From Escherichia coli (GTDB lineage: Bacteria; Pseudomonadota; Gammaproteobacteria; Enterobacterales; Enterobacteriaceae): a stretch of 64,000 nucleotides of DNA. Made by a program: the position numbers and the translations under genes. Location: assembly GCF_051903065.1 (NCBI RefSeq), contig NZ_CP178438.1; one strand, given 5' to 3'. This document shows, one piece after another, positions 21,100-48,066 of the stretch (positions within the stretch are counted from its first letter, which is position 1; each line of letters begins with the position of its first letter). The notes under the pieces are model-generated. The model was given only the letters and a program-made list of their open reading frames with translations, was not told the DNA's origin and did not search any database.

Positions 21100-21222
21100 A
21101 CGCTTTTCCTTGTGGATCTCAACTCGCCAGCACCTATCTTACATGCCGGTCCGTATCAGAGATACTTTTTGAGTGGCTTTGCCGGTGATTAAAAATCAAG
21201 GAGGGTGTAACGACAAGTTGCA

Positions 21223-21400
21223 GGCACAAAAAAACCACCCGAAGGTGGTTTCACGACACTGCTTATTGCTTTGATTTTATTCTTATCTTTCCCATGGTAC
21301 CCGGAGCGGGACTTGAACCCGCACAGCGCGAACGCCGAGGGATTTTAAATTCTACGCAGGATCAATGAGTTACATAGCAGTGCATTGCGAAACTTTGCTG
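21223..21400. repeat. att direct repeat copy 1 (host-side leuZ terminator, displaced 56-nt 3' end of tRNA-Leu at 21295-21350, and about 50 bp of shared element-end sequence)
   Basis: Near-identical to 23538-23712; the part through gggattttaaat matches 58630-58754 inside intact leuZ. Confidence 0.85.
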
Positions 21401-21630
21401 TAATTGTTTACTCATTTTACTGTAATTGGCAGTAAATAGATAGACTTGGATAACTTTGAGCACAGAATCTGCACAGGTAAGTCCCCTCTCACGGAGGCCT
21501 ACCTGTGCTATATCTATATGACTGCAAAGTTACGAGTTTGACTGGAAATCTTCAATTATCTTCTGATTGTAATCATCCAGATACTTTTGCAGTTCATCCC
21601 TGTCGATCAGACGTACCAAGGCTGATTCAG

Positions 21631-22171
21631 CTAACTCTTTCGCAGAGCGAGTGAGTAGGAATTAGTCACAACCATCGCCTCATCACAACCATAGAATGTT
21701 TTAGCAGAGATCACCTGCTGCACCGCCGAGTTACCTACAGAACCAGAATAATTTTTCGCCTGAATAACCATATCCTTACCAAATCGAGTGACGAAGAGAT
21801 CTGCCCCCTGATCTTGCGTTCTCTTGGTTTCTTTGACGTCATAGCCCATAGTCTGGAATACTTCCACAAGGAAATCTTCAAACTGGAAACCGTCCATTGC
21901 ATCAACTAAATACATGGTGACGAATTTGTTAGGGTTAAAATGTTCGAGCCGTGTAGCTAATCTATCAACCAGAATATCAAAATAAATATGTTCGCACACA
22001 GCTAAGTATTTTTTAACTTCATCAAATGAAACTAAAGGAACACCAGGCGTAGCCTCCACTTTTTCATTGAACTCTACTGATGAGAACTCTATTTTATTGC
22101 TCCATATATAGAATAGAAACAATGAAAGATCTGCCCTAAAAGTGGTACCCGCTTCCTCAATCCATGACTTC
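21631..22171 (-). pseudogene. Mrr-type restriction endonuclease domain gene, 5' end removed by IS1
   Basis: ORF 21631..22185 begins inside the IS1 left end; product has the Mrr_cat-like motif GADLFVTRFGKDMVIQAKNY (D..QxK). Confidence 0.6.
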
Positions 22172-22939
22172 GGTGATGCTGCCAACTTACTGATTTAGTG
22201 TATGATGGTGTTTTTGAGGTGCTCCAGTGGCTTCTGTTTCTATCAGCTGTCCCTCCTGTTCAGCTACTGACGGGGTGGTGCGTAACGGCAAAAGCACCGC
22301 CGGACATCAGCGCTATCTCTGCTCTCACTGCCGTAAAACATGGCAACTGCAGTTCACTTACACCGCTTCTCAACCCGGTACGCACCAGAAAATCATTGAT
22401 ATGGCCATGAATGGCGTTGGATGCCGGGCAACAGCCCGCATTATGGGCGTTGGCCTCAACACGATTTTACGTCACTTAAAAAACTCAGGCCGCAGTCGGT
22501 AACCTCGCGCATACAGCCGGGCAGTGACGTCATCGTCTGCGCGGAAATGGACGAACAGTGGGGCTATGTCGGGGCTAAATCGCGCCAGCGCTGGCTGTTT
22601 TACGCGTATGACAGGCTCCGGAAGACGGTTGTTGCGCACGTATTCGGTGAACGCACTATGGCGACGCTGGGGCGTCTTATGAGCCTGCTGTCACCCTTTG
22701 ACGTGGTGATATGGATGACGGATGGCTGGCCGCTGTATGAATCCCGCCTGAAGGGAAAGCTGCACGTAATCAGCAAGCGATATACGCAGCGAATTGAGCG
22801 GCATAACCTGAATCTGAGGCAGCACCTGGCACGGCTGGGACGGAAGTCGCTGTCGTTCTCAAAATCGGTGGAGCTGCATGACAAAGTCATCGGGCATTAT
22901 CTGAACATAAAACACTATCAATAAGTTGGAGTCATTACC
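22172..22939 (+). mobile_element. insAB: IS1 copy 1 (768 bp, insA 22227-22502, insB frame 22421-22924), no target-site duplication
   Basis: Left end ggtgatgctgccaacttactgat and right end aagttggagtcattacc; Ins[40 protein letters not shown]; flanking 9-mers differ (catgacttc vs gccgcttca). Confidence 0.95.
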
Positions 22940-23364
22940 GCCGCTTCACGCAATATCATTTCAGGCTGGCCCGGGAGCTTAATATTCCTCCCCAGGCAAT
23001 CGTGTATGCCAATCTACTGGCGTGGGATTACGACGGACTGACCCCTCTCAATCGCCCTCAAAATGAAGTGCAGGAAGTTATATTAGCCTCGCTGAAGCTG
23101 CTGGCGGTACAAATTAAACACCTTGAGCCTGATTTCATCATCTTTGCATCTGGAGCCCGGAGAACAGACTACATCATAAAACAGGTGCTTACTGAGCTGG
23201 GCGGCTATGAGACTTCTGCAGTCATTCCGGGGAAGCTATGGGAGTTCAAAACAGGTAATGCAATCTGTTTCAGAATTGCCCATCCAAGGGCTATGCGCGG
23301 ACACAAGAAGTACAGAGATGAGGTGATTGCACGAATTAAGCAACTTTGTACTCAGGGTGGCTAG
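22940..23364 (+). pseudogene. 3' fragment of the 57717-58457 gene (UDG-like), truncated by IS1
   Basis: 22940-23600 is near-identical to 58033-58698; translation YANLLAWDYDGLTPLNRPQNEVQEV... matches the C-terminal 141 codons of the 246-aa protein. Confidence 0.8.
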
Positions 23365-23537
23365 AGCATTACAGTTTGCTCAGCAGGCCCCCCCTTCCCG
23401 GAAGAGTACCGGAAAACAGGCAAAGCGGCCTGGTTCTCTATGCTGGAGGCGACACGTTCAATTCGGCATTGCCAGGCTGTAGATTGCAGCTCATTGCACC
23501 CCGTGAGCACAGGATATGCACAGGGCGTGAATTGCAT

Positions 23538-23712
23538 GCACAAAAAAACCACCCGGAGGTGGTTTCACGACACTGCTTATTGCTTTGATTATTCTGATGT
23601 TTCCCATGGTACCCGGAGTGGGACTTGAACCCACACAGCGCGAACGCCGAGGGATTTTAAATTCTACGTAGGATCAATGAGTTACATAGCAGTGCATTGC
23701 GAAACTTTGCTG
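23538..23712. repeat. att direct repeat copy 2 (internal; terminator plus tRNA-Leu 3' fragment 23607-23662 with two substitutions)
   Basis: Aligns with copy 1 and copy 3; followed by element-end sequence that diverges after gaaactttgctg. Confidence 0.85.
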
Positions 23713-23938
23713 ACGTTGAATGGTCGTCTTTGCAACCACTGGCAGAAAATGGATAGCCGTAGATTGCGTTGAGCACAGAAACAGCACAGGGTAATCGTCT
23801 ACCTGGTCCTGTAAAGGAGGTTGTTGCCACACAAGCTAAAGCGCTTGACCTGCCCCCAGTATTCGGTACAACTGTCAGTTAGTAATGGACTGACCCCACC
23901 CCGGTAGACGATCCTGCCCTATAGTTACCTTTAACTAA

Positions 23939-26900
23939 TTATGCCAATTCAGACTCAAACGCTGCATCATTCGCTTCAGCCTCTGCGCCATCAATTAATG
24001 CCAAGACTCGGTCAAGAAAGCGTTGCGCTTCGTATACATCTGTTGCTTGCCGCAGATAATGAGGTATTCGTTCAACAAACTCGGAACGTGATAAAGGCTG
24101 ATGTTCCAGCAAAGCCTCAAGCATTGCGGGCCGCAACAAACGACGATCAGCATCAACATTAGGAAGCTCAACCTCAATGACATGTGTGGCAAAATACTTA
24201 AGTTGCTCCTTAAGCCCCAAATTGGGCATAAGAGAATCAATTGAGTCAGACGCCACTTCAGCGCTTGACTCAATCGTTTCTACATATTCATAGGAAGGTA
24301 CAACAACGTCTGGAGCCAATGTTTTAAGCTCATGGAGTTTACGGATAATCGGAGATAGAACCTCATCAGGATTACTGAACCAATCAGTGGACCAAATGCG
24401 GCTAATTCTCCAACCCAAACGCTCCAGAACCTCTTGACGCAAACGGTCACGATCACGAGCAGATTTAGCTGAGTGATAAGCCGCACCATCACACTCTATG
24501 CCCATTAAGTAACGGCCAGGACAACCTGGATCTTTCACAGCTAGATCAATAAAGAATCCTGCAACCCCTACCTGAGGTTCACACTCAAACCCAGCGTGAT
24601 TGAGTGCTTCCATTACAGCAACCTCAAAGTCACTATCTGGAGCCCTGCCGGTATGCGTTGTGAGGGAATCTAGTTTGCCACTTTCGGCAAACTGTAAAAA
24701 ACCTTTCAACGAAATAACACCAAGTTTACTGATTTCACTCGTCAATACATCTTCAGAACGCATTGAACTAAACACATGCATCCGTTTTTTTGATCGAGTG
24801 AAAAGCACATTCAAGCGACGCCAGCCAACATCGGAATTGATAGGTCCAAAGCGTTGATAAACCTTTCCACCATGCTCAGAAGGTCCATAGGTAAAGGAAA
24901 TAAAGATTACATCACGCTCATCCCCTTGAACGTTCTCAAGGTTTTTCACAAAAAGTGGCTCTTCCATGGCATATAAGCCATCGATTGCATCGTTAAATTC
25001 AGGGCGATTTCGGCGCAATTCATCGATAGCGCGCTCAATTTGATCGCGTTGCTTGGAACTCATGGCCACTACCCCGAGTGACTCACCCGGCCGGTGTTGC
25101 GCATGATGAAGTACGGCCTCAGCAACTGCTTGGGCTTCTTCAATATTGTGTTGATTGGAGAACCGACCTTTTGACACATAGGTAAATTTAATCCCATACT
25201 CTGGAGACTCAGCATTTGGGGAAGGGAATATCACCAAATCACTGTTATAAAAATGGCGGTTAGAGTATGCAATCAACTTTTCATGTCGTGAACGATAGTG
25301 CCAACGCAAACGTCTCATAGGAAACAGTGGCAAAGCAGCATCCAAAATGCTGTCAGTATCACTTAAAGCCGCGGCATCATCGTCATCTTCTCCGTCGGCA
25401 CTTCGATCAAAGAAACTGGTTGGTGGTAGCTGTTTCGGGTCACCAACGACCACTAGTTGCTTGCCCCTCGCGATGACACCCAATGCATCCTCTGGCTTCA
25501 CCTGAGACGCTTCGTCCATCACCACCAGATCAAATTCCATTCGTCCAGGTTCTAGGTAATGAGCTGCTGACATTGGCCCCATCATGAAACAAGGTTTAAT
25601 TGCAACCAGCGCATTACATGCACGGTTAACCAATTGCCTAATTGGAATATGTCTGGTTTTTTTACCCAACTCATTTTTGATCAAAGCTAGTTCTGTATAT
25701 TCACTTTTCTTACCACCAGAATTCCCTTCTGGTATATTTCGGCAAGCAATTTTTGCTGCAATCCGCTGACGTTGTAATTCAATCAGTTTTTTATCGTAAT
25801 CTTTAAATGACTTCTGCAAAGCATTGCGCTGTGAGCCGGAAACTCTCATCAATTCAGGGTGGATGTGAATAACCTCCCGCGCCAGCTGGTCATGAATTGC
25901 TAATGCTAAACCCAATTCAACTTTTTCAATCGGGAGCGAGCCCGCAAGTACAGCACTCCAGATTCGCTGCAATCCATTTTCATGCATCTGCTCGTAACAA
26001 CGAATAAAGTTAACCCACCCGTTCAACCAACGGGGTTGCTGTATTGCTCTTTCGTTGCGCTCGATTAATGTATTAAGAGAACCATCAGTCGACTTGAGCC
26101 ACTGACTCCGCTCTAACTTTGTTTCTAGCGCATATAACTCAGCATTTTTAATCTGTTCATTCCATTTCGAAACTATTTCCCCACCATCACGACATAGTAA
26201 ATCGTAATCACTACCACTAGCCAAATGTCTGATCTGGGTAGCCAAGGATACGCAATTTATCTTATCAACCAGTTGCTCGGCAAAATTCAGCGTGTCGTTA
26301 ATAGTGTCTAACGTCAGTTGATTATTTTTATACGCACCGCAAGCCAATGGGGTTAATTGTAAAAACGCCCCTAACTGTAACGAGTCATTTTCAAGGGATA
26401 TCTGAAGATCGTTTATGTTTTGCAAAATCTCGGAGGAATGAGTCATCTGCTCTAATGATATATCTGGATTGATAAACCATCCCTGCAAGGCAATGAGAGT
26501 ATTCCGCACCTGTCGGTAAGATTGCATCAATACACCTTGCTCACCTAACCAAGATGCATGTTCTTCCAACAAGCTAGAAATACGCGGTAATAACTTAGCC
26601 TCGTGCTCGACCCGTTTAACCAAAGTCATTAATCTTGAGCTAATCTGCGATTTCTCGATTAAATGCACACCTTTGATAATCTCACCATCTAGGTTAAATA
26701 ATCCAGAGCCTATCGCAACTCGCTTTCCAAAACCTATCCCGTAACAAGCTCGGACCTTCTTGTACCAATCACGCAATAACATGAGTTGTTCACAGTCGGT
26801 GTCCAACCCTCGGAATGCATTACCAAGTTGATTACCAAAGTCACTTTGTTCAAACCGTTGTAACAGCTCCGAATACTTGAGCAAATCAGCTGAGCAGCGT

Positions 26901-29686
26901 TTTAACTCAGCAAACTTAGTGTCAGGCTTACGAGATTGCGCCATGAGCAGTGCCTTGGCACTACGCCAATCACTCTTAAACCATGCAAATAATCCCCCTT
27001 GCTGGATAACAGCAACGGCATGCGCGAGCATCTCTTGGGAAGGCAACTGGTCCAATTGATACAAAGTAGATAGACCATCTCTTAAAGGACGCAATGTTTC
27101 GATTTGACACATTAAGTCGCGCAATACTGCATCGATATCATCATCATCAAAAAGAGGATCTCGAACTCTAATAAGCTCAGTCGGTAAAGCACCCAGAATC
27201 GACAACAACTCAGAGCAGAATAGCAATCCAGCTTGCGAATCATCGATATACGAAGCAATACCATCTGGCAAAGCATTTTTGAAATCGTTTAATTGCGCAT
27301 AAATAGATGATAACTCATCATGAATTGATTGGATGGATTCAAGCCACCTGACCAAATCACGTAAAGTGAAATCCTCTGCTGCACCATATTTTTCCAGCTC
27401 TTCACGAGGAAAGTCACACGATTGTCCTTGTTCTAAAAGTCGTAGCTTTTGAGGCTCGATAACCTGGCTCAAGGCCACATAATGACCTTGTAGCAACTCG
27501 AACCTATCTAAATAGTGACGCACCCGTGCAATGGCATCGGGTGAATCTAGCTCACTAAGTGCTGGGAAATGCTCTGAACCACACAACACTGGAAGATTCG
27601 ACTGATCTTCTACCAATTGCTCAATATATTGAAGCGTATTAAGGCTTTCGCCTTCTAACGCCCACTTATCTACATATTCTTGATAGCTATGTTGAAAGTC
27701 GATAATTGATGTCTGCCAAGTTTGTAGCAAATCGACTATACGAGCGCTGTCAAACAATTGAATTTGTGTGTTATTCACACCGCTCCAAGGGTGCTCATAT
27801 ATTTCTGCATTAGCCCCCACCTGCTCACGAACCTCTTTGTAGATGCGGCTAAACTCTACTATTTGGTCACGCAGCCGTAATTGGGTCACTTTATCCAACT
27901 GCTTCCCGGAAAGGTTTTCGATATGAAGTGCTGTTGCATCAATATCTAATTTGTGACGATAACGGGTTGCACCACTCAAAATCTGATGGATCGTTTTGCC
28001 TGTTTGCGCCCATTGGTTATTGATCAATGCGGCATATTCATTGAGCTGCTGCTTAAGATCTTCATAACGCAAAATCTGAGCATCAATCTCTTCCATAGTA
28101 GGCATGGTCGCCTGACTCACCAAGCGAGCATTAATATCATCCAGCACCTTGCGCTTATGAGTTTTATGACTGTGCAACTCTAAGCAAAATTGACCTAGCC
28201 CCGCACGATCCAAGCGACGTTTGACGACCTCCAGTGCAGCCATCTTCTCTGCCACAAACAGGACTTTCTTACCGTTGAGCAGAGCTGCTGCAATCAAGTT
28301 GGTGATCGTTTGTGATTTGCCACTACCAGGAGGGCCCTCAATGACTAAGTTTTGACCACGGATAGCATCGATCAACGCACTGTGCTGCGAGCTATCCGCA
28401 TCATCGATTAGTGGAACCTTGTCATGAATATCAGGGTAACTATCGATGCAGTACTCATGCTGACCGAAGCCACCAGGTAAGCCGGAATTCTCTTGACCAC
28501 AGCTCTGACTGGTGAAAAAGCGACGAATTACTTCATGAGACAATATATTGCGCTTGTCACAAGGCCAGCGGGCAGGATCGAGGTCAAGATACATCATCAT
28601 CTTGCCAAAATTGAGCAAGCTAAGTGCACCATAACGTTTCACAGACCATTTAGGTTTGTGCTGCTCTACAACCTTCTTCACCGAAGCAAAATAAGACTCT
28701 GGAGTTTCCTCTTCATTGAACAAAGGAAGAGCGAGGCCAAAGTCAGCCTGAAGTTTTTCCTTCAAAGAGAGATTGGGCAAAATATCTTCACCCGTGTAAT
28801 AAAGTTGAAACTTGTAAAGACCATCCTTCGGATCTAATTTTCCTCGTTCACATCTCACCGGAATTGTAAATAACGGTGCATAACGTGCCTTTTCAGAGGA
28901 ATCGCTTTCATACCACTCAAGGAACCCTAACGCCAAATACAAGATGTTGGCGCCACTCTCCTCCAAAGCAGTTTGAGCCTTACCATAGATGGCGCGCAAA
29001 CAAGCTTCCAGTTCATTTGGATAAAGCAGAGCCTGTATCCGATTATCGTCATGAGAGGGATTGGAAGAAGATATACTAATCTCATTCCCAGCCTTTGCCT
29101 GTCGTTCAAAATCCTCAAGCCCTTCATAGCCTGCTAAGCAGCACGCCTCCTTCAACGCTGACAAAGCTATACCTTGATTAACGTATTCAGAACGAATCCC
29201 TGTTAATTTTCCATTCTGGCCTTGGGCATATTGCAAGATAAACTGATGGGCTTTTTCCAGCAACTCTCTATCTGAATCAGAAACAACCGTTTTATGGCTA
29301 TCTGGTAAATCAAAATCTGTACGGATTCCTAAGACGTGCGCCCAATCCTTAGCGCTAGGATGAGCTCTTAACTGTATATCTTTACCATCTGGCCCAACTT
29401 TGAGATAGCCATGCTCTAACAGCTGCGCTCTAGTTGGATCGGGCACAGGAGCAAATTCCATCGGGATTTCCGAGCAAAGGGTTTCATAAAGCTGTTCTGG
29501 TAATTCATCAACAATACGTAGTGAAGACCCTTTTTGAGTGATAGGGAAATTCAAAAGTCGATTTCGAGACGTAAGGTCCAATAACTTCTTACGCATAGCC
29601 TCGAGGGAAGTCAGAATAAAATCTGAGCCTCCTTGATTGAGTTCCTCTGCTGTAGAGGTATCTACAGTCGACATAATGTTCTCCAT
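23939..29686 (-). CDS. 1915-aa DUF4011 / SF1 (Upf1-like) helicase / Vsr-like (DUF559) endonuclease protein; resembles single-gene Hhe-type defence proteins
   Basis: N-terminus LLDLTSRNRLLNF; Walker A GPPGSGKSQT; Walker B and motif III DLVVMDEASQ...VVVGDPKQLPP; C-terminal GFFIDLAVKD...GIECDGAAYH...RDRDR. Confidence 0.75.
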   Translation of the reverse strand: MENIMSTVDTSTAEELNQGGSDFILTSLEAMRKKLLDLTSRNRLLNFPITQKGSSLRIVDELPEQLYETLCSEIPMEFAPVPDPTRAQLLEHGYLKVGPDGKDIQLRAHPSAKDWAHVLGIRTDFDLPDSHKTVVSDSDRELLEKAHQFILQYAQGQNGKLTGIRSEYVNQGIALSALKEACCLAGYEGLEDFERQAKAGNEISISSSNPSHDDNRIQALLYPNELEACLRAIYGKAQTALEESGANILYLALGFLEWYESDSSEKARYAPLFTIPVRCERGKLDPKDGLYKFQLYYTGEDILPNLSLKEKLQADFGLALPLFNEEETPESYFASVKKVVEQHKPKWSVKRYGALSLLNFGKMMMYLDLDPARWPCDKRNILSHEVIRRFFTSQSCGQENSGLPGGFGQHEYCIDSYPDIHDKVPLIDDADSSQHSALIDAIRGQNLVIEGPPGSGKSQTITNLIAAALLNGKKVLFVAEKMAALEVVKRRLDRAGLGQFCLELHSHKTHKRKVLDDINARLVSQATMPTMEEIDAQILRYEDLKQQLNEYAALINNQWAQTGKTIHQILSGATRYRHKLDIDATALHIENLSGKQLDKVTQLRLRDQIVEFSRIYKEVREQVGANAEIYEHPWSGVNNTQIQLFDSARIVDLLQTWQTSIIDFQHSYQEYVDKWALEGESLNTLQYIEQLVEDQSNLPVLCGSEHFPALSELDSPDAIARVRHYLDRFELLQGHYVALSQVIEPQKLRLLEQGQSCDFPREELEKYGAAEDFTLRDLVRWLESIQSIHDELSSIYAQLNDFKNALPDGIASYIDDSQAGLLFCSELLSILGALPTELIRVRDPLFDDDDIDAVLRDLMCQIETLRPLRDGLSTLYQLDQLPSQEMLAHAVAVIQQGGLFAWFKSDWRSAKALLMAQSRKPDTKFAELKRCSADLLKYSELLQRFEQSDFGNQLGNAFRGLDTDCEQLMLLRDWYKKVRACYGIGFGKRVAIGSGLFNLDGEIIKGVHLIEKSQISSRLMTLVKRVEHEAKLLPRISSLLEEHASWLGEQGVLMQSYRQVRNTLIALQGWFINPDISLEQMTHSSEILQNINDLQISLENDSLQLGAFLQLTPLACGAYKNNQLTLDTINDTLNFAEQLVDKINCVSLATQIRHLASGSDYDLLCRDGGEIVSKWNEQIKNAELYALETKLERSQWLKSTDGSLNTLIERNERAIQQPRWLNGWVNFIRCYEQMHENGLQRIWSAVLAGSLPIEKVELGLALAIHDQLAREVIHIHPELMRVSGSQRNALQKSFKDYDKKLIELQRQRIAAKIACRNIPEGNSGGKKSEYTELALIKNELGKKTRHIPIRQLVNRACNALVAIKPCFMMGPMSAAHYLEPGRMEFDLVVMDEASQVKPEDALGVIARGKQLVVVGDPKQLPPTSFFDRSADGEDDDDAAALSDTDSILDAALPLFPMRRLRWHYRSRHEKLIAYSNRHFYNSDLVIFPSPNAESPEYGIKFTYVSKGRFSNQHNIEEAQAVAEAVLHHAQHRPGESLGVVAMSSKQRDQIERAIDELRRNRPEFNDAIDGLYAMEEPLFVKNLENVQGDERDVIFISFTYGPSEHGGKVYQRFGPINSDVGWRRLNVLFTRSKKRMHVFSSMRSEDVLTSEISKLGVISLKGFLQFAESGKLDSLTTHTGRAPDSDFEVAVMEALNHAGFECEPQVGVAGFFIDLAVKDPGCPGRYLMGIECDGAAYHSAKSARDRDRLRQEVLERLGWRISRIWSTDWFSNPDEVLSPIIRKLHELKTLAPDVVVPSYEYVETIESSAEVASDSIDSLMPNLGLKEQLKYFATHVIEVELPNVDADRRLLRPAMLEALLEHQPLSRSEFVERIPHYLRQATDVYEAQRFLDRVLALIDGAEAEANDAAFESELA

Positions 29687-29860
29687 TTCTTAGGGTCCAC
29701 AAGTAAAACGTTTTATGCTGATGCATCACAAAAAGACCGCAGTAAACTGCTGCAAAGAAGAGGAGATTTTTAGTCTCCCCTTCTTTATCAATCAGATCAT
29801 ACAATCAACTTAACGCCCATTAGTTGATAGCAGCCAAATTTCATAAACAGATTCAATCCG

Positions 29861-31903
29861 TTATTGCTGAATTTGATTGGATAGTAAGACCTGCAACATA
29901 TCTTGTTGATGCACAGCTATCTCATCTTCCAGCCAACGACCTTTATCTTTCATCAGCCGAATCATAGCAAGCAATTTAAGACTATCAGTCTGGTTATTGG
30001 CAAGGCTTGCTTCAAAGTGCTCCTGCTTCTGTTGCGGCTGGAAGTTACTCAAGCGCGAGTTCTTGCTGTGGCTGATAAGGCAAAGGTTGCCAAACGAATG
30101 GAGTGCACTCTGCTCAACCGGTTTATAGCCATCCATCGGATGCTGGGGTGAGAAGTGCTCCACCGAGCTGCGGAAAGTGAACTCAAAGGAGCCAGCAACT
30201 TTGTCGCTATTCCGATCTCGTACCCACAGCAGATAGTCGAGGAAGTTGAAGACAAAGTTGTTCTCGATATGACCGAAGCGAAGTTTGGATGTAATCACCT
30301 TGTGCCAACTCTCATCCACATTGATGGCGGGCAACAGGGCGTTATCAAGGTAGAGCATCTGGTAATAGGAAGCCCCTTCACCAGGCGCCAAAAAGCGCTG
30401 GAAGACAAAGCGGCGAGCCTGACTCTCCAGATAGGACAGATAAGCCCCGGCATCCACCGGTTGATCAGGGTGACAATTGTCGAACAGATATCTCAGTGCA
30501 CCATTCAGCCAATGTTTGTAAACCAGGGTCGGGGTCGACACATGAAACGCCGACAGCAACATCAGGACCCGCCGGTTAACACCAGAGAAACCATTCTCAT
30601 TTTCATCCTTGTCAAAGGTATTGATGTAACTGACGCTCTTTTCCGAATACCAGTGCAGCCGCTTCAGACTCCAACTATCCTTGCCATCGGCAAACTCGCG
30701 CTTGATGATGAACTGATCAAACAGATACTTGCTCTTTAACAGGCCATAGATAAAACGCTGAACTGCCGCTACTGGATCCGGTTGCCTTATCACTCGCAGC
30801 TCAAACTGATCGACCAGTTGTTTATCATCAAGCGGCACCCCCTCCGTATCACCCGGGTCGCGGCTCACGAGTCGCAGCACATGGAGCAAGAAGTTGGAGA
30901 AGTTGATGACGCTGTTAAAGCGCTCGGAGCCTGCGCTCTCCTCCTCCACCGTCTGCTCACCATCAAGCTTGTCATCCTGCAAAATGGCCAACAAGGTGCG
31001 CCCTTGGCTACCGGCAGCTGCACGGCTTTTATCGGCAGCGTCGGCCGTGTTTGGGGATCCTAGCAGATCAAGCAGATGGGCAAAGTCACGGGGCACAAAC
31101 TGACCCCAGTCGCTCTCACCAAACAGACGGTGGCGCTCTTGCGGGGTAAAGCCGTACTGGATATAGCGCTCCATATTGGCGCAGGCATCCCATACCCGGG
31201 TCAGGATATGAATACTTTGGCGACGATGCTCTTCCTCGGGTATCTGGTTCAGCGTCTCCATCAGCCGCGCCTTGATCACTTCATGCTTTTCCAACTGCTC
31301 GCCGCGATTGTTCATCGCCTCGAAGAAGTGATTGAGATCGGTATCCTTGGGTACTTCGATACGAGAGATCTGCACATGCTTGAAGAGGTAGTCGCAAAAG
31401 GTCGTCAGTTTAGCCCCTACCAAACCAAGATCCGCCATTGCCTTGCCAATCAGCTCAAAACCGTTCACCAAACCTTCATTGAAGGTACTCCCCCGCAAAT
31501 CGTAGGGGGCAACACCCTGCCATAAGCGCTCGAAGGTATGGCTCGATATCGGGCGACTCTCAAAAGCGAGGTTGATGGTCTGATACCAGCTCATATCCAC
31601 CGAATCTATCGCGTGATGTTTGAGCCAATTGGCCAGCAGAGAGAGGGTAGTAAAGCGCTGCTGGCCATCGATTACCTCGAAACTGCCATCGTCCCGGGCA
31701 AACACCACCAGGGTGCCGATATAGTAGGTTTGCGGCCCCTTACCACTGACCAATTTTTGCTGATAATCCAGCACATCCTGCAGCAGCTGGGTGATCTCTC
31801 CCTCACCCCAGGCATAGTTGCGCTGGTACATGGGCACCAGATAGCGGGCGCGATCTTCAAGCAGTGCACGAATGGAAAAGGGGCGAACGCCTGCATCATT
31901 CAT
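29861..31903 (-). CDS. GmrSD-like protein (N-terminal DUF262, C-terminal DUF1524 His-Me finger nuclease), putative type IV restriction component
   Basis: DUF262 motifs [16 protein letters not shown] and DGQQR; DUF1524 motifs VEHFSPQHP and [17 protein letters not shown]; 8-bp overlap with the upstream gene. Confidence 0.75.
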
Positions 31904-33350
31904 AATATTTCATCTCCCGAAACAGCCCGACCAGCTCATCTTCGGCACCATTGCGATTGTTCTTGTTCTCTCGACTGCTCATGCTAGGCAAAGGGAAGCC
32001 GTGCAGATCTCCCGGCAGACGAGCATCACGAATGGCACGGATCAGATTGTGCTCCAGCACATAGTTATCCATGGTTGCCAACTGCACTACCTGCTGGCGG
32101 ATGCGGCAGCGATAGGCCCAGATAAAGCACTTCTCGATGGCCAGTGACAGCCCTTGGCTGCCGAACTTGTCGATATAGAAGATCAGGGCGCAGTCGAACA
32201 TGGCCCGCACATAACGATCCCCGGTGCGGTGGCGACGCTCGTAGCTGCCCAGGGTCGATAGCACCTTGCTGGCCATCGGTGTCAGCGTTTCGCCGAGCAG
32301 GGTGGCAGATTGCGCCTTGCCGGAATCAGACTCCTCGGCCACGATGGCGGCCACCCGCGTCTGGTAGTACTCGGCCATCTCGAAAAAGCGCCGACCATTG
32401 ATGATCATCTGGTCGAGATGAAAGGGAAACGTCATGTACTGGCCGTCAATCTTGCGCTGGTACTGGCGGTTGTACTCATCGACAAAGTGGTGGGCGATGC
32501 GCAGCGACTCCACGTAAGGATAATGCCCTACCCGATCTAGGTTGACCCCCTTGAAGAGATCCACCTCCCCCTTGCCAAAGTAGCGGGCCGACTTGCCCTC
32601 GGCCCACTGGCGTACCCGATAGAGATAGAGGGCGAACAGATTGGCCAGCTCGTCGCTTGGCAGGCGCTCCCAATGGGCGACCGCCTCGGCCTTGAGATTG
32701 GCCTCATGACCGGCAAACTCGCGCAGGTGAAATGCCTTGAGCAGATCGTGAGGAGCCAGATCGCGCCCCCGGGCATTTTGCGAATCGAAGAACTGGAACG
32801 CCTCCGAGATATCCTGCAGTACAAAGCAGACCACCTGACAGCGGTTGAGCAGAAAGTCAATTTGCTGCTCGTCAAACTCAGGGCGGGCCACCAGCCGACG
32901 CAACTCCAGATAGTTGCGTCTGAGGTTGAACTCCGAATCCCGGCTGGGGAAGCGCTGGCGCTGCATAAACGCATCGATAGGTCCACGCAAGACCTGCAAT
33001 TGCTCACGCAGATCCTGACGTTGAAACCGGATACTCTTCTCTTTGCCACTGCGATTTTCGTTATCCAGCACCTCGATCAGCGCCTTGACGGTCAACATCA
33101 GGGTCAGGGTGCGTTGCTGACCATCGACGATATCAAGCATCTCGCCCTGCTCACTATCGGTGTGCTGATGAAACACCACCGAGCCCAGCCGGTAGGCGCT
33201 CTTGTCCTGATGGGTTGCCAAATCGGTAAAGAGATCCGAGATATTCTTGGAGCCCCAGCGGTAAGGTCGCTGATAGCTTGGGATGGCCAGTTGGGGAATG
33301 GCCAGCAACTGGCGTACCGACTGCACTTGATTATTAATGCTCTCCATCAT
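31896..33350 (-). CDS. DUF262 (ParB/Srx-like NTPase) protein, GmrS-like, no recognisable nuclease domain
   Basis: Motifs [22 protein letters not shown] and DGQQRTLTL; translationally coupled to the DUF262-DUF1524 gene. Confidence 0.7.
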
Positions 33351-33371
33351 GCCTCCTGCGGTATGAAGTGG

Positions 33372-33973
<602 letters not shown>

Positions 33974-34004
33974 GACAAATGAGCCCATTGGAATAAGTTA
34001 GAAA

Positions 34005-34760
34005 CTACATATCTGCCAACAACATCCCAGCCATACCATCCAGTCGCTTCTTAACCTTTTCCCAGCCCGGCATAACCTGCCCCATCAGACGGTAAAACTC
34101 CTCGCTGTGGTTGTGCTCAGCCACATGGCATAACTCATGTAGCAAAACATAATCGATACATTCTGAGGATGCCTTAACCAGCCATGGATTCAGGGTCAGA
34201 CAGCCTTTTGCTGAACAGTTGCCCCATTGCGTTTGCATCGCCCGCAGACGTATCGGAGGACGCTCACTGACCCAAAGGGTCTGCGGAATCAGTAAATCAA
34301 GCCTGCGCTGAAAAACATCTCTGGCACGTTCCCGATACCATTCAGCCAGCAAGGCTTTAATCTTTTCTGCCGATTTGTGTCTGACAGTCACTTCCAGACG
34401 CCCACGCAACATTTTCACTCGTTGCGGCACAGTAGCGTCTTCTGTCACTTTCAACTGATATTGCTTACCGAGATAATAATGGCTTTCTCCGCTGACATAC
34501 TGACGCGGAACAATGTGTATCTGTTGCTCCCTGAAATCACGCAGTTGCTGGTATATCCAGCGCCCACGTTTTTTCAGCGCAGACAATACCTCGTGCTCCG
34601 GTGTTTCAGGCGGTACAGAGGCCACAACCCGGCAGTCCGGATAAACCTTAATGAGCACCCTGCCCTTTACGACCTGACGCGGAACACACTGTACGACGAT
34701 GACCTCATCACCATAGACAATGCGTAACGCTTTCATTGATGGCGATTCTTTTTCACTCAT
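34005..34760 (-). CDS. DUF45/M48-family zinc metallopeptidase (YgjP-like), often linked to type I R-M loci
   Basis: 251-aa ORF with HExxH motif HELCHVAEHNH; ATGA overlap with the hsdR stop. Confidence 0.7.
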   Translation of the reverse strand: MSEKESPSMKALRIVYGDEVIVVQCVPRQVVKGRVLIKVYPDCRVVASVPPETPEHEVLSALKKRGRWIYQQLRDFREQQIHIVPRQYVSGESHYYLGKQYQLKVTEDATVPQRVKMLRGRLEVTVRHKSAEKIKALLAEWYRERARDVFQRRLDLLIPQTLWVSERPPIRLRAMQTQWGNCSAKGCLTLNPWLVKASSECIDYVLLHELCHVAEHNHSEEFYRLMGQVMPGWEKVKKRLDGMAGMLLADM

Positions 34761-37700
34761 GATTTCATCAAACCAACGCGCAGTATCTGGATGATGGTTT
34801 CCACAATACGGTTAACCTGATTCATTCCGGCACCAATTTCCCGGCAGGCCGTAAACAGCAGTGGTAGCAGACTTGTCTTAACGACTTTCTCAATGTCCTG
34901 GGGGTTCAGGGAGTTTTCTGCCACCGCTCTAACGATAATGCTGTCCACTTCAAAAGCCAGCTTCGTCCACTTATCCTGCACCTGAACGTCTTTTACCACA
35001 AAAACCTCAGGTAGCTCTTTTTTAAATACACCGTAATACGCCTGAGCATGCTTGTTTACCGCCAGTGCATCCGGGATATCGCTGAGCTTACGGGCTTCAA
35101 CCTGTTCTTCAAACTCACGGAATAAGAGGTACTGCTTAAGTGGATGGTCGAACAGTTTTTCAGCCTCTTCGATTGCCATACGCAGGAGTCTGGAAAAGGC
35201 CTCCTGAGCATACGGATCATCACGCAGCTCCTGCTCAATCATCTTCGTCACACGGGTTTTAATGATGTCGGTTTCATTGCGGGTTTTATTGTTGTCCCAC
35301 TCTTCGGGCTTTTCGCTCTTACCCATTTTACCGACTTCATACACGCCATCCGGTTCACGAACCTCAACGCCGGTGACATGCTTATCCAGCAGTTTTTTCA
35401 CCTGCTCGGCGTAGTCGTCATAATTGACCTGCTCTCCACTGACCTGCATCGCCCACTGGCGCAGGCTGGACATCTGTTTTACGGTTTCTTTATAGAGGTT
35501 TCGGTCTTGTTCCGTAAAGCTCTTGTCGGTGAAGAAGGTGGCGGACTGCAGTGCCACTTTCAGGCATCCGGCAAAGGCCGTTAACGCCTCGAAGAAATCA
35601 TCACGGGTTTTCTGATGGATATCGACCATCTCTCCGTCACGTTCTTCCATTTTAGGCACCAGTACCGCACGTAACTGCTCAGTATCATTTTTGTTTTTGA
35701 CACCAGCAAATATGGCCCACAGCTGGTTATACAGATGCGGCAGGCGCTTGTATTCAGAGCTCATGGCGCTGTACAGCCCGTCAATATCTTTGATGTCGTA
35801 TCCGCCCTGAGTTCGGGAGGCGAGGTCCTGATATTTGCCGATAGTCGTGTCCAGCTCAGCCAGAATACCGCGATAATCAATCAGCAGACCGAACTTTTTT
35901 AGTGGATGCAGTCGGTTCACCCGCGCAATCGCCTGGATAAGGTTGTGGGACTTAAGCGGCTTGTCGATATACAGCACGGTATTCTTCGGCTCATCAAACC
36001 CGGTGAGCAGTTTATCAACGACTATCAGCAATTTGAGCTTCTCATCGGTATCGAAACGACTGATGATATTGCGGGTATACACAGACTCATCCTGCGTGCC
36101 GACGTTATCTTTCCACCATTTCGTCACTTCCGGCAGTTTGCTTTCATCCACCTCAGTATTCCCTTCCCGGGTATCCGGCGGGCTGATAACTACAGCTGAC
36201 TCAAACAACCCGGCTTCATCAAGATACTTTTTATATTTGATGGCGGAAATCTTGCTGTCGCAGGCAAGCTGGCCTTTCAGCCCCTCATCAATATTCTTCG
36301 AGAAGTGCGTGGCGATATCGAGTGCGATCAGACGGATGCGATCATCTGCACTATAAACCTCACCTTTACGGGCATATTTACGCTTAAGGTCGGCTTTTTG
36401 CGCTTCGCTTAACCCATCGGTAATACGATCAAACCAGGCATCTATTGCCCGATCGTTAACCTCAAGGTCGGGAATACGTTCTTCATACAGCAAAGGTGTA
36501 ACGGCTTTATCTTCTACCGCTCGCTGCATGGTATAAGCGTGGACAATCGGTCCGAATTTATTGGTGGTCTTATCTTCTTTTAGCAATGGCGTACCAGTAA
36601 ATGCTACAAAGGCGGCGTTCGGCAGTGCCAGTTTCATTCGCACATGGTTCTCACCACCCTGGCTACGGTGTCCTTCATCAATCAGAACGATGATATCGGG
36701 GCTGGTATTGACGCATTCAGGAAGTTTTGTCGCTGAATTAAATTTCTGGATTAGGGTGAAAATGATGCGTTCTTTACCGGAGCCAATCTGTTTCGCCAGC
36801 ATCTGCCCGGATGTCGCCATTGCATTGGCTTTGTCTTTTTTCCCGGCCAACTCGCCGCCGGATGCAAAGGTACTGCTGAGCTGTTCTTCAAGATCGATAC
36901 GGTCCGTCACCACCACGATACGACACCGCTTCAGGCTGTCATGAAGGATCAGCGCCTTGCTGAGGAACACCATGGTGTACGATTTGCCAGAGCCGGTGGT
37001 ATGCCAGATAACACCACCTTCCCTGCCCCCATCGGGTCTGCGGGTACTGATGCGTTCCAGCAGTCTTTTAATCCCGAACACCTGCTGATAGCGGGCAACA
37101 ATTTTTCCGGTCTTTTTATCAAACAGGGTGAAGAAGCGGGTCATCTCCAGCAGACGTTCCGGCGAAAGCAGACTGATGAGCAGCTTATCCTGCCCGCTGA
37201 CAGCCAGTTCCCCCCCGGCGATTAACTGCTGATACCAGTTGAGATCGCCAACAGGACGATGCTCAAATAACGCATCAATTTGTTCAGTCGATAAAGGATG
37301 GTTGCGCAGGGCATACATCTGCGCATCGGTAATATCCTCTTCGCGCCATGCCGCCCAGAATTTCATTGGCGTATGGCATGTACCGTAGCGCCCGTCATGA
37401 CCGTTAATCGAAAGTAATAACTGGCTGTAGACAAACAGCTGCGGGATTTCATCGTTGAACTGGTTGCGGATACTCTGGGATATCCCCTCGTCAATGGTTG
37501 GCCCTTTCTTGCCATGACCAGCCGGGCTTTTCGCTTCAATAACAGCCAGCGGGATACCATTAACAAAGCAGACAATATCTGGCCTCCGGGTTTCAACACC
37601 ACCTGACCGCAATACCGTAAATTCTTCAGTAAAATGGAACTGGTTATTTTCCGGATGTTCCCAGTCGATCAGCGCAATGGTGGGGTTGACCTTCTTGCCA

Positions 37701-38044
37701 TCGACAAACTCCGTGACGGCGATACCGTAGAGCAGATGGTTATACATCCGCTCATTGGCTTTGAGCAGCCCTTCATTCAGCGCCGGAGAACAGACCTGTG
37801 ATATCAGGTTATCCAGTGCTTTTTCCGATAACTGGCAGGTTTTGCCACCCGCCATAAAGGAACGCTTCGACAGCTCTTCACGCAGAACCGGACGCAGCAC
37901 CACCTCATCCTGTTTATAGCCCCGGTAATCCATAATCTGTTTCGGAGATAAAAACGCCCAGCCGAGGCTGGTCAGTAACGTCAGTGCCGGAATTTTGGCG
38001 CTGTATTCTTCCTGGAATTTTGGCGTGTACGTCTGGTTCATCAT
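34757..38044 (-). CDS. hsdR: type I restriction enzyme R subunit
   Basis: 1095-aa ORF MMNQTYTPKFQEEYSAKIPALTLLTSLGWAF; helicase motifs HTTGSGKSYTMVF and VLIDEGHRSQ; operon with hsdM and hsdS. Confidence 0.9.
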   Translation of the reverse strand: MMNQTYTPKFQEEYSAKIPALTLLTSLGWAFLSPKQIMDYRGYKQDEVVLRPVLREELSKRSFMAGGKTCQLSEKALDNLISQVCSPALNEGLLKANERMYNHLLYGIAVTEFVDGKKVNPTIALIDWEHPENNQFHFTEEFTVLRSGGVETRRPDIVCFVNGIPLAVIEAKSPAGHGKKGPTIDEGISQSIRNQFNDEIPQLFVYSQLLLSINGHDGRYGTCHTPMKFWAAWREEDITDAQMYALRNHPLSTEQIDALFEHRPVGDLNWYQQLIAGGELAVSGQDKLLISLLSPERLLEMTRFFTLFDKKTGKIVARYQQVFGIKRLLERISTRRPDGGREGGVIWHTTGSGKSYTMVFLSKALILHDSLKRCRIVVVTDRIDLEEQLSSTFASGGELAGKKDKANAMATSGQMLAKQIGSGKERIIFTLIQKFNSATKLPECVNTSPDIIVLIDEGHRSQGGENHVRMKLALPNAAFVAFTGTPLLKEDKTTNKFGPIVHAYTMQRAVEDKAVTPLLYEERIPDLEVNDRAIDAWFDRITDGLSEAQKADLKRKYARKGEVYSADDRIRLIALDIATHFSKNIDEGLKGQLACDSKISAIKYKKYLDEAGLFESAVVISPPDTREGNTEVDESKLPEVTKWWKDNVGTQDESVYTRNIISRFDTDEKLKLLIVVDKLLTGFDEPKNTVLYIDKPLKSHNLIQAIARVNRLHPLKKFGLLIDYRGILAELDTTIGKYQDLASRTQGGYDIKDIDGLYSAMSSEYKRLPHLYNQLWAIFAGVKNKNDTEQLRAVLVPKMEERDGEMVDIHQKTRDDFFEALTAFAGCLKVALQSATFFTDKSFTEQDRNLYKETVKQMSSLRQWAMQVSGEQVNYDDYAEQVKKLLDKHVTGVEVREPDGVYEVGKMGKSEKPEEWDNNKTRNETDIIKTRVTKMIEQELRDDPYAQEAFSRLLRMAIEEAEKLFDHPLKQYLLFREFEEQVEARKLSDIPDALAVNKHAQAYYGVFKKELPEVFVVKDVQVQDKWTKLAFEVDSIIVRAVAENSLNPQDIEKVVKTSLLPLLFTACREIGAGMNQVNRIVETIIQILRVGLMKS

Positions 38045-38093
38045 TAATCCTTTTCTTTCTGGCGCTACTCGCTACTGGTCACATGAAGATTCA

Positions 38094-38777
38094 TCAATGC
38101 AGACAGCACCTCTTAAATTTTTTACCGCTGCCACACGGACACGGGTCATTTCGCCCGGGCATGTTTTCTGCCCCCTTCACTGGAACAGGCCGGGATGATG
38201 CCTCTGACATTCTCACTGACAACCAGTACTGATAAAGTGCCAGTGCAGCAGGCTGAATAAGGGAAATACTTTTCTCAAACTGCTCTCCGGTCATTTTCTC
38301 AAGTACAGGAAAATTCTTCTCCACGCCATGAAGAGCGATCACTTCCAGAGAAGGCCGTAACTCACCGGGAAGACCAGACCAGTCATCCAGTGACTTTCCT
38401 TTCATATAACCAAAACACCACTCTTCCACAATGGTATATTTTTCCCCCTTTACCTCACGCTCATTGAAAATCGGTTCAAACTGTTCAGGGGCCTCATACA
38501 GGCAGCCAGCGATATCGTTCATATGCTGAAAACACAGCCCCACAAAACGCGTCATCTCTTTTTCGGTGGTCCAGCGAGGGTGGTAATCACCTCGCCCCCA
38601 GATAGCACTGAGCCAGGTATTAGGGGAAATCGTATTCGGGCCAGAGACAATCGCTGTCAGAAAGCCATCCAGCTCAGAGAAACAGAGCACAGAATCATCA
38701 TTGCCGTATTTCAGCAACACCTCTTCCAGCCAGTCGATTTCCCGGTCAATCAGCGGCCCGCTTTTCGTCAGTTTCAT
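38094..38777 (-). CDS. YecA-like UPF0149 / SEC-C motif protein, paralogue of chromosomal yecA, inside the hsd operon
   Basis: 227-aa ORF MKLTKSGPLIDREIDWLEEVLLKYG... aligns along its length with YecA (20434-21099), including [11 protein letters not shown] and the terminal [21 protein letters not shown]; start overlaps hsdS stop, 49 bp before hsdR. Confidence 0.85.
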   Translation of the reverse strand: MKLTKSGPLIDREIDWLEEVLLKYGNDDSVLCFSELDGFLTAIVSGPNTISPNTWLSAIWGRGDYHPRWTTEKEMTRFVGLCFQHMNDIAGCLYEAPEQFEPIFNEREVKGEKYTIVEEWCFGYMKGKSLDDWSGLPGELRPSLEVIALHGVEKNFPVLEKMTGEQFEKSISLIQPAALALYQYWLSVRMSEASSRPVPVKGAENMPGRNDPCPCGSGKKFKRCCLH

Positions 38778-41565: not shown

Positions 41566-41868
41566 GAATCATCCTGGTCTGAAGAAAAAGCTAGCGATGC
41601 AGGGCTTTGCATCTTAAAAATTGCGGTAAATGATACCGTAAGATGCCTCCCCTGACACGCCAATATCGCAGCATTCAGGTTTGCATCATCCCCGTAATAT
41701 CGACATGAGACAGACTGACACAACCTGGCTCGTCACTCGCTAAAAACCAATTATCTTAGTAAGATAGCATCCATATTAGCCATGGTGTAAAACTGCCGTT
41801 GGGGTAATGATGATCCATATATCACCCGTTCTGGTGTGTGGAGCTGACATGATCCATAATCGGCAACG

Positions 41869-43104: not shown

Positions 43105-43610
43105 CTTTAAAACGATAAAAACAAATGAGAGACTGAATAAATATCAGCCTCTCACATAGTTAATAAGTTTCAACTTTAATATCTGAGAAATCATTCTATC
43201 TGGGCCTTGTGGACATTAATCCTCCTGGCAACATACGACTCAAAGTTTCAGCCTTGTATAGCCATCATAAATAGTACAGGATTGGGTGCTGCTCGCATGT
43301 ATCATTCTGGTATTAATACTGATCATCAGGGGTAACTTGTATGTAATTTAAAAACCATCATATCTCAAATCTCACAATGCTCATATTTTAACCATAAAAA
43401 CTAACCGATTTACACCCGCCATATATTATCATAACTTATTGTATTTAAATGGCTATAAGCCTCTAACTCACTGATTACACCATTAAATTCAAGCCATATC
43501 CTTACGCAGATACAAGCTTGCCCCTGCTGCCATTCACGTTTTAGGATTACCTCGCTAACACGACATGCTACTTTTTAAATCAGTGTAATAATTCAAACGA
43601 GGATAAAATT

Positions 43611-44741: not shown

Positions 44742-44884
44742 TTTCTTAATATAATGGCGACATGGAATTGTGTTGCCATTATATCCGAATCTGCGTTTTT
44801 TCACCTGATGAACTGTGAAAGCTGTAACTGGCAGACTATAACCTCACATCGTATTTTTCCAGTGTCATTTACAGGAGAAATACG

Positions 44885-46021: not shown

Positions 46022-46163
46022 TCTGTGATTCGTGATTGATGCAACACTCGTTTAAGGACGGTATTGTCATTGCATGCTTCTGCAGGGCCCTGCATTAAGT
46101 CATCAAAGAATGTGGATTGATATTAAATCCGCGTGGTTTCTTCTTCTCTAAAACCGGAGGTTT

Positions 46164-48058: not shown

Positions 48059-48066
48059 TTCTTTAT

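Follow-up and report, generated by a model that had tools for sequence, protein, structure and literature searches.

A probable IS1-joined remnant of a pipolin-type island beside a complete pipolin at leuZ of Escherichia coli

Pipolins, for which the presence of piPolB is the defining criterion, integrate at tRNA-Leu with att direct repeats and carry at their right end a recombinase gene and a gene that is named type-4 UDG in the pipolin literature (Flament-Simon et al. 2020, PMC7385651; Mateo-Caceres et al. 2024, PMC11551731). Strain H10407 is a published pipolin host. For enterobacterial pipolins, deletions, IS elements and tandem accretion have been discussed, and the tandem accretion of islands is cited (PMC11551731). 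A literature search returned nothing specific on islands at leuZ, and the pipolin literature is the body of work relevant to the locus described here.

IS1-promoted adjacent deletions, which arise by intramolecular transposition, belong to classical IS1 genetics. A decayed element that retains both att sites and has lost its recombination genes is termed a CIME; CIMEs, as well as the tandem accretion of ICEs and genomic islands, are known from the work on ICESt1 and ICESt3 of Streptococcus thermophilus.

The window analysed here is a stretch of 64,000 nucleotides from E. coli (contig NZ_CP178438.1 of RefSeq assembly GCF_051903065.1). Within it, the segment 21351-23662 (approximately 2.3-2.4 kb) is bounded by two copies of an att repeat of about 133 bp that contains the leuZ 3' end (Table 1). 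Only the two extremities of a unit (unit 1) are kept in this segment, and its interior is gone. The left extremity consists of a terminal arm followed by a 3' fragment of an Mrr-type endonuclease gene, and the right extremity of the 3' part of a UDG-fold gene, a non-coding end and an element-borne 3' half of leuZ; the joint between them is occupied exactly by one intact IS1 without a target-site duplication. Because both element ends are kept, the segment represents an internally deleted unit, and it is very probably what is left of an integrative defence island of pipolin type, formerly resident at leuZ, whose interior was lost in an IS1-dependent manner. The open reading frames of the segment include no polymerase gene, the recombinase is absent, and the remnant cargo contains nothing intact apart from IS1.

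Table 1. Features of the leuZ region, in coordinates of the window
Feature	Position	Strand	Basis or remarks
att copy 1, yecA side	21218..21350	-	displaced native leuZ 3' 56 nt (21295-21350) and downstream terminator region
Left terminal arm of unit 1 (element end adjoining att)	21351..21477	.	with att, 21218-21477 matches 23532-23790 at 87%
5'-truncated Mrr_cat restriction endonuclease pseudogene	21530..22171	-	Pfam and RefSeq annotation
Complete IS1 (IS1A type) at joint	22172..22939	+	sequence read directly; 768 bp
UDG-fold gene fragment of unit 1	22942..23364	+	140 codons and stop, residues 107-246
att copy 2	23532..23662	-	unit 1 right-end repeat and unit 2 left boundary
Unit 2, complete pipolin of about 35.1 kb	23663..58754	.	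RefSeq annotation, piPolB identity
Functional leuZ (tRNA-Leu, anticodon UAA)	58699..58785	-	ARAGORN; 3' 56 nt within third att copy 58624-58754

Each att copy comprises the 3' 56 nt of leuZ and about 75 nt downstream. Att copy 1, found as a member of a direct-repeat family, is 96% identical to the third copy and 100% identical to the leuZ end of strain 675SK2. The leuZ 3' half in att copy 2 has a compensatory T-stem variant at 23619/23633; these positions correspond to tRNA positions 75 and 61 (assigned by hand from the alignment and the leuZ coordinates) and form U-A in att copy 2 and C-G in the current leuZ. Next to att copy 1, the left arm of the remnant recurs as the left end in related single islands (loci L002 and L003). 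Identity between the remnant and unit 2 is 87% at the left end (127 bp) and 97% at the right end (723 bp).

The endonuclease fragment on the left flank corresponds to the 3' 642 nt of a gene of 1182 nt, which when intact encodes 393 aa. The PD-(D/E)XK catalytic domain Mrr_cat (PF04471) of Mrr-type (type IV-like) enzymes is matched with E = 2.8e-21 by the fragment and with E = 7.4e-30 by the intact homologue, Mrr-like nuclease domains are the sole PADLOC matches, and the fragment is labelled 'restriction endonuclease, missing N-terminus' in RefSeq. In addition, one base of a homopolymer is missing at 21653 in the window, a deletion that is found neither in the near-identical RefSeq record nor in any comparator. 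With the N-terminal 180 aa lost and the frame shifted at 21653, the gene is non-functional here. The endonuclease gene is also split near the joint in strains LR-46 and ESBL_DR28, which were considered as cases of simple IS1 insertion and rejected, the inserted element being ISKpn26, which is unrelated to IS1.

On the right flank, the UDG fragment lacks the conserved G50-N57 motif of its intact counterpart in unit 2, a 246-aa protein encoded at 57717-58457 (+). The fragment shows 0 mismatches to locus L003 from position 16049 onward and 97% identity to the unit 2 copy. The UDG-fold protein has no sequence match in Pfam, NCBIfam or PDB, and profile searches with it returned no family except an uncharacterised PHROG. 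The top 50 Foldseek matches in PDB to its AlphaFold (AF2) model (pLDDT 89.6), however, are all members of the UDG superfamily, with TM-scores of 0.35-0.57 and identities of 10-15%. Invariant in the alignment are G50-R-E-T-x-G-W-N57 and H220-P221, which by our reading may equate to UDG motif A (GE-x-PG-like) and motif B (HP-x), respectively. A role of the gene as part of an integration module was considered and rejected, because its distant homologues do not adjoin integrases or tRNA genes: those in Proteus lie beside Mrr and type I R-M genes, and those in Stutzerimonas among small genes of no known function.

Elements of the IS1 family are 768 bp long, with terminal inverted repeats of about 23 bp and insA/insB' read through a programmed frameshift, and a simple insertion is flanked by a duplication of 8-9 bp. 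At the joint, the terminal inverted repeats of the IS1 (GGTGATGCTGCC... / ...GGAGTCATTACC) are intact. Strain 2022CK-00450 and loci L003, L004 and L020 carry an IS1 with 100% identity to this one, and an identical copy is annotated in RefSeq with an intact transposase that is expressed through a programmed frameshift. No target-site duplication is present, the 9-bp flanks being CATGACTTC on the left and GCCGCTTCA on the right (flanking sequences at the joint atccatgacttc and gccgcttcacgc). Since other IS copies of the same window have 9-bp duplications, namely the IS1 at 53318-54085 (TTGATATGG) and the IS903B at 46420-47476 (GCAGCAAAC), the missing duplication is meaningful, and the joint IS1 is a genuine IS1 but not a simple insertion.

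These results confirm what the original prediction had described from the DNA alone. All parts of the decayed segment between att copies 1 and 2 were found where it had placed them; the Mrr-type endonuclease keeps its Mrr_cat domain and is 5'-truncated; and the IS1 does lie without a duplication between two unrelated truncated flanks, both genes being truncated and the flanking 9-mers unlike each other. The 3' 141 codons ascribed to a second copy of the UDG-like gene are the 140 codons and stop of Table 1. The statement that 22940-23600 is near-identical to 58033-58698 holds in so far as the similarity is far beyond chance, but it is slightly generous, as the identity between 22940-23662 and 58033-58754 is 97.2% (19 mismatches and 1 gap in 723).

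Unit 2 is a pipolin and so belongs to a published family of defence islands that integrate at leuZ. Its piPolB (48105-50705, 866 aa) shares 99% identity with the ETEC H10407 protein and matches the Pfam DNA_pol_B_2 family weakly. Its recombinases are an integrase at 56437-57636 (-), with domains identified by profile search, and a second tyrosine recombinase at 44885-46021, and it also carries Hhe, two DUF262 genes, type I R-M, DUF726 and DUF2787. The same unit is found alone beside yecA in FDAARGOS_944. In H10407, the endonuclease cargo seen in the remnant and the integrase/UDG end lie within one backbone of about 27 kb, on which the points matching the two remnant joints are about 25.9 kb apart.

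The remnant appears to belong to a series of related deletions. On a common reference, the left end of IS1 lies at 10644 in NDM5, at 4775 in 675SK2 and EC-129, at 2777 in 720632, at 2724 in 2022CK-00450, 22AR0118 and 1008S19, and at 2602, within the endonuclease gene, in the window and ECNB21-M121; the right joint of the window falls in the UDG gene, at position 16049 of L003. Across the E. coli genomes, the IS1 in the island has five left endpoints and five right-flank classes, with duplications at none. In three pairs (NDM5/720632, 2022CK-00450/22AR0118 and window/ECNB21-M121) one joint is common and the other differs; 2022CK-00450 and 22AR0118 are of the same lineage and differ by a further 1111 bp deleted on the right. 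Such nested endpoints, shared single joints and missing duplications fit stepwise IS1-promoted deletion, and the interior was probably lost in several steps, not all at once. At both of its joints the window departs from the remnants most closely related to it, which implies at least two further events, or parallel erosion from a common IS1-bearing ancestor. The IS1 and right end of the remnant are sequence-identical to those of 2022CK-00450, and the chromosomal flanks are about 1.5% diverged; near-identity of the remnant on diverged chromosomal backgrounds would require horizontal spread.

Under the proposed mechanism, the island would first have acquired an IS1, and its interior would then have gone in one or several deletions dependent on that element. 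The likeliest form is the IS1-promoted adjacent deletion by intramolecular transposition, in which the IS is kept and the duplication destroyed; from both ends of the IS1, the gap would have widened step by step. Measured against the H10407 unit, the loss would amount to about 26 kb, with both tyrosine recombinases, piPolB and type I R-M. The earlier proposal that most of a first unit, including its integrase, had been removed through IS1 is borne out by the two retained ends, the existence of complete relatives and the nested IS1 endpoints elsewhere, and the comparison with other leuZ occupants that had been put forward as its check found in H10407 an undivided counterpart.

The order of events may be approached through ECNB21-M121, a strain with the same chromosomal background as the window: over 20 kb of the left side the two are separated by 5 substitutions and 1 indel, and to the right of 58598 there is no difference. 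The endonuclease/IS1 joint of this strain is identical to that of the window, but a divergence of about 1.5% separates its right-hand unit from unit 2. Derivation of ECNB21-M121 from the window by an IS903B-mediated deletion alone was considered and rejected, because 118 positions distinguish its remaining right-hand unit from unit 2, whereas the chromosome to the right is identical. The left joint would therefore have arisen before the window strain and ECNB21-M121 split, and, as the two share this joint but have different right-hand units, the remnant is probably older than unit 2, with erosion under way before unit 2 arrived and not inside a full tandem. The remnant would first have been alone at leuZ, its element-borne 3' half keeping the gene functional; a complete pipolin (unit 2) would later have integrated into leuZ beside it, to give the order att1, remnant, att2, pipolin, leuZ. 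Having no recombinase of its own, the remnant would now be fixed in place, unless att1 can serve as a substrate for the integrase of unit 2. Remnant-only states are present in other lineages. In none of the 5,426 complete E. coli genomes, nor in metagenome contigs, was leuZ found to be occupied by precisely this remnant and nothing else (642-nt endonuclease fragment, IS1, 423-nt UDG fragment, leuZ), so that we infer, rather than observe, that the remnant came first.

Several other explanations of the locus have to be considered, beginning with those in which no eroded unit exists. The window contains three copies of IS1 and the genome at least 37, so that repeats of this element might have been collapsed or wrongly joined to give a false joint, and the assembly is not error-free, as the window and the RefSeq record differ at four homopolymer runs. 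Both exact joints, however, are identical in two separately assembled complete genomes of the 5,426, 23CRST027 and 23CRST031, and since 23CRST031 carries an additional IS1 close by, its assembly is no copy of the other. The left joint is also present in ECNB21-M121, which comes from another country and study. Exact-pattern scans of metagenome contigs returned neither joint. A misjoin, moreover, would not give both correct element ends together with their own att copy and allele, and an assembly artefact is thus highly improbable. Equally hard to credit is the idea that the 723-bp repeat is no trace of an older unit but an intrinsic long terminal duplication formed when unit 2 integrated. It would explain why the repeat ends exactly at the att core adjoining unit 2, but the lone unit 2 in FDAARGOS_944 has only the att repeat of about 133 bp on its left and no UDG fragment. 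Furthermore, the remnant copy matches the 2022CK-00450 allele without a difference and departs from the unit 2 copy at 19 places, which is the opposite of what a local duplication is expected to produce.

The route and timing of the deletion leave more room for alternatives. The end product is compatible with adjacent deletion as well as with IS1 x IS1 recombination at each step, and missing duplications have been attributed to either cause, the former reported to proceed stepwise and the latter listed as common (PMC11708052). If the endonuclease gene and the UDG-fold gene had each independently acquired an IS1, the two being in direct orientation, RecA-dependent recombination between them would delete the interior and leave one IS1 with one half of each duplication. 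This course has a real, if lesser, chance of being correct: the number of IS1 copies in these genomes makes it conceivable, and simple IS1 insertions with duplications do occur in the UDG gene of 1008S19 (inverted) and GD33 (direct). However, no genome searched has a simple IS1 insertion at either joint position, and each of the three pairs would need a new insertion and a recombination, whereas a single step suffices for adjacent deletion. The IS1 at the joint is also non-mosaic, a point of little weight because identical copies recombine invisibly. As to timing, two full-length pipolins might have stood in tandem at leuZ before an IS1-mediated deletion removed the yecA-proximal interior in place. 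The final order of parts would be the same under either history, and tandem occupancy of the att site is documented in H10407, where a pipolin and a prophage are accompanied by three att repeats. Such a history is nevertheless unlikely in view of the different right-hand allele behind the shared left joint in ECNB21-M121 and of the remnant-only states elsewhere; in addition, two full units with about 25 kb of direct, 97-99% identical backbone should, by our reasoning, collapse fast by homologous recombination.

With erosion before the arrival of unit 2 as the preferred reading, the locus offers a clean natural example of how IS elements erode an island in steps while the att sites and the tRNA gene stay usable, so that the site can accept another island. 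For annotation, three att copies with a UDG fragment signify a pipolin remnant and a pipolin, not a single 37-kb island. Such remnants go uncounted where a survey takes piPolB as the mark of a pipolin; among the 5,426 complete E. coli genomes, at least 237 have the UDG right-end gene without detectable piPolB (532 versus 295). It might be speculated, with considerable doubt, that the remnant is a mini-element mobilizable in cis by the unit 2 integrase and that IS1-eroded, piPolB-less shells form a large class overlooked by piPolB-centred surveys. If so, recombination of att1 by that integrase would allow the remnant and the pipolin to excise and transfer together, or the remnant to excise alone, and the shells would keep leuZ att sites available for the capture of new defence islands. 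In itself, the remnant is real but ordinary genome decay of a known kind of element, with no new system or mechanism and little wider significance.

The locus may finally be set against the known systems. As in IS1-promoted adjacent deletions, the IS is kept precisely at the joint, there is no duplication, the deleted interval starts exactly at the IS end, and related strains form a nested series of endpoints in which one joint is constant; the present case differs in that it is known from its products alone and that, compared with the nearest relatives, the joint has shifted on either side of the IS. The CIME structural feature is also present: the remnant has att sites on both sides and no recombination or transfer genes, and its tandem neighbour is an intact element whose integrase and att are of the same type. 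In contrast to CIMEs, it is only 2.3 kb long and has no intact cargo other than IS1. The locus also resembles pipolins. The site leuZ and att-like repeats overlapping the tRNA 3' end are common to the remnant and unit 2, while unit 2 and its intact relative H10407 have in common the integrase and UDG right-end module and a backbone with DUF2787, a second recombinase and an HTH gene, defence cargo and piPolB. By the piPolB criterion, the remnant, which lacks both piPolB and recombinase, is a shell of a pipolin and not a pipolin. Three att repeats, deletions and IS insertions have already been reported for pipolins; in the three-att cases of the papers cited here the neighbour is a prophage, whereas here it is a pipolin remnant.

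The segment between att copies 1 and 2 (the remnant, or unit 1) is, as read from its sequence, a pipolin-type unit minus its interior, because ETEC H10407 holds the same Mrr-type endonuclease, PD-(D/E)XK and DUF262 cargo in a single unit that agrees in backbone and right end, and because the left 127 bp and the right 723 bp of the remnant share homology with the corresponding ends of the adjoining complete unit (unit 2). The lost interior, measured on H10407 as a stand-in for the ancestor, would amount to about 25.9 kb and would include both recombinases and piPolB, the primer-independent family-B DNA polymerase. With both unit ends retained and this length missing, the predicted loss of most of a first unit, including its integrase, is supported.

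Features of the leuZ region (positions in the window)
Feature	Position	Strand	Remarks
yecA	20434-21099	-	chromosomal flank of the integration site
att copy 1	21218-21350
Remnant	21351-23662
Joint IS1	22172-22939		768 bp, both ends intact
Unit 2	23663-58754		35.1 kb
IS scar	33598-33975		inverted 5' IS1 fragment adjoining an IS3-family fragment; DUF262 pair on one side, M48/type I R-M genes on the other
YecA/YgfB family gene	~38090-38780		in the type I R-M operon of unit 2, between hsdR and hsdS
IS903B (IS5 family)	46420-47476		separates the recombinase/HTH pair from the piPolB region
Second complete IS1	53318-54085		between the DUF726 and DUF2787 genes
UDG-fold gene	57717-58457
leuZ (of leuZ-cysT-glyW)	58699-58785	-

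Unit 2 is a pipolin, because its polymerase shares 99% identity with the protein of ETEC H10407, a published pipolin host (PMC7385651), and because it has the traits described for E. coli pipolins, which are tRNA-Leu integration, att-like repeats on both sides (sometimes three in all), and a right end with recombinases and a type-4 UDG (PMC7385651). Among its genes are Hhe, two DUF262 genes, an M48 peptidase and a type I R-M system, and it also carries a tyrosine recombinase with an HTH gene, the family-B polymerase, DUF726 and DUF2787. At its leuZ end lie an Arm-DNA-bind_3/Phage_integrase integrase and the UDG-fold gene, which adjoins leuZ. The IS scar is also found in strain FDAARGOS_944, and is therefore an old trait of this pipolin variant. 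The R-M operon holds a YecA/YgfB family gene, and the flank of the integration site is yecA itself.

The 246-aa protein labelled 'UDG-like' has no Pfam or NCBIfam family, and sequence profile searches gave no match, but its confident structure model matches UDG-superfamily structures only, with modest TM-scores. Homologues with 50-87% identity occur across Gammaproteobacteria (Pectobacterium, Proteus, Marinobacter, Pseudoalteromonas and Stutzerimonas; loci L013-L018), and in Proteus the neighbours of the gene are Mrr and a type I R-M system, not an integrase.

The joint IS1 is flanked by CATGACTTC on one side and GCCGCTTCA on the other, and so has no target-site duplication, as originally predicted. 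This absence is meaningful, because other IS copies within the window have one: the second complete IS1 (98.7% identity with the joint IS1, its site empty in the close relative ECNB21-M121) and IS903B are simple insertions with 9-bp duplications, TTGATATGG and GCAGCAAAC, respectively. The left flank of the joint IS1 stems from a 1182-nt gene that encodes an Mrr_cat-domain protein, and comprises its 3' 642 nt. The right flank comprises 140 codons and the stop of the 246-codon UDG-fold gene, and this fragment, with its downstream DNA and att, is 97.2% identical to 58033-58754. Both the 5'-truncated endonuclease gene and the repeated UDG-like 3' fragment of the original prediction are borne out.

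It is very unlikely that misassembly created the joint, because both joints (endonuclease/IS1 on the left, IS1/UDG-fold gene on the right) occur in two complete genomes that were assembled separately, and a third, from another study, has the left one. The proposed comparison with other strains also revealed single units and remnant-only loci. The window is chromosomal DNA of E. coli, and over 47.5 kb it differs from 23CRST027 (NZ_AP045789.1) by 0 substitutions and four single-base homopolymer lengths (21653, 23388, 47024 and 53815), which look like long-read errors in one or other assembly. The first is a 1-bp deletion that gives the endonuclease fragment an additional frameshift and is absent from the RefSeq record and all comparators; the last two lie in IS903B and the second complete IS1, respectively, both marked frameshifted by RefSeq.

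In other complete genomes too, an IS1 in the same orientation joins left parts of the island to right parts. Placed on one common reference, the IS1 left ends fall at 10644 (NDM5), 4775 (675SK2, EC-129), 2777 (720632), 2724 (2022CK-00450, 22AR0118, 1008S19) and 2602 (the window, ECNB21-M121), while the right flanks are five distinct ones, and no duplication is present at these linking copies in the window and the listed strains. Three strain pairs have one joint in common and the other different. In the cleanest pair, 2022CK-00450 and 22AR0118, which are of one lineage, the left joint is identical and the right joint is displaced by 1111 bp, out of the integrase gene and into the UDG gene; that of the window is found another 274 bp farther inside the UDG gene. 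The IS1 and right-end fragment of the window show 0 substitutions against 2022CK-00450, and the yecA-side chromosome is about 1.5% diverged. Such a series of endpoints would be expected of IS-promoted adjacent deletions growing stepwise, as reported for other IS elements (PMC11708052). A missing duplication is usually caused by adjacent deletion or by IS x IS recombination (PMC11708052), and recombination between two IS1 copies is a possible origin of the joint, considering that the UDG gene carries simple IS1 insertions with duplications in 1008S19 and GD33. However, no simple IS1 insertion was found at either joint position in the genomes searched. The predicted IS1-mediated deletion or recombination is thus supported by the duplication-less, nested endpoints in other strains.

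With respect to the order of events, ECNB21-M121 has the chromosomal background of the window (5 substitutions and 1 indel in 20 kb on the left, none right of 58598) and an identical endonuclease/IS1 joint; therefore, the left joint is older than the divergence of the two strains. In ECNB21-M121 an IS903B, identical to the copy in the window but at a different site, interrupts this IS1 at nt 37 in a duplication-less joint. The right-hand unit of ECNB21-M121 shows 118 differences from unit 2 and a UDG allele of its own, so the right-hand units of the two strains are not the same. Remnant-only loci are present in other lineages, and FDAARGOS_944 has unit 2 alone. On these grounds together we favour the order in which the remnant was first at leuZ and a new pipolin later integrated into leuZ, which the element-borne 3' half would have kept intact until then. 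It is conceivable that a full tandem came first and that one of its units then lost its interior, but two direct-orientation units with about 25 kb of common backbone should be unstable.

Every att copy consists of the 3' 56 nt of leuZ and about 75 nt downstream. In the T stem of the leuZ 3' half in att copy 2, pair 61-75 is U-A (23619 and 23633) versus C-G in the current leuZ (58711 and 58725; positions derived by hand), a compensatory change. In 2022CK-00450 and 22AR0118 leuZ is completed by the same 3' half, and the resulting tRNA is still expected to fold.

Among 5,426 complete E. coli genomes, piPolB is present in 295, the UDG right-end gene in 532 (555 places, at most 3 per genome), and the Mrr-type endonuclease in 243, truncated in 23 of them. 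The excess of the UDG gene over piPolB indicates that many leuZ islands of pipolin type, relatives or remnants, are without piPolB, and these may match or exceed pipolins in frequency. In ETEC H10407 (L019, 45223 onward) a prophage that has an integrase of its own lies next to the pipolin, on the leuZ side; this is the published three-att arrangement, and it shows the site to be commonly occupied in tandem. The same strain has a Mza defence system and ISCro1 between yecA and the endonuclease gene.

By its anatomy the remnant is a candidate cis-mobilizable element. Pipolins are defined by piPolB, which the remnant does not have; therefore, it counts as what is left of a pipolin, not as a member of the family. 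Earlier work has described IS1, Mrr-type endonucleases, pipolins, tandem accretion at tRNA genes and erosion by IS elements, and deletions, IS elements and accretion are already mentioned in the pipolin literature (PMC11551731). The remnant is an ordinary, though well-supported, instance of island decay.
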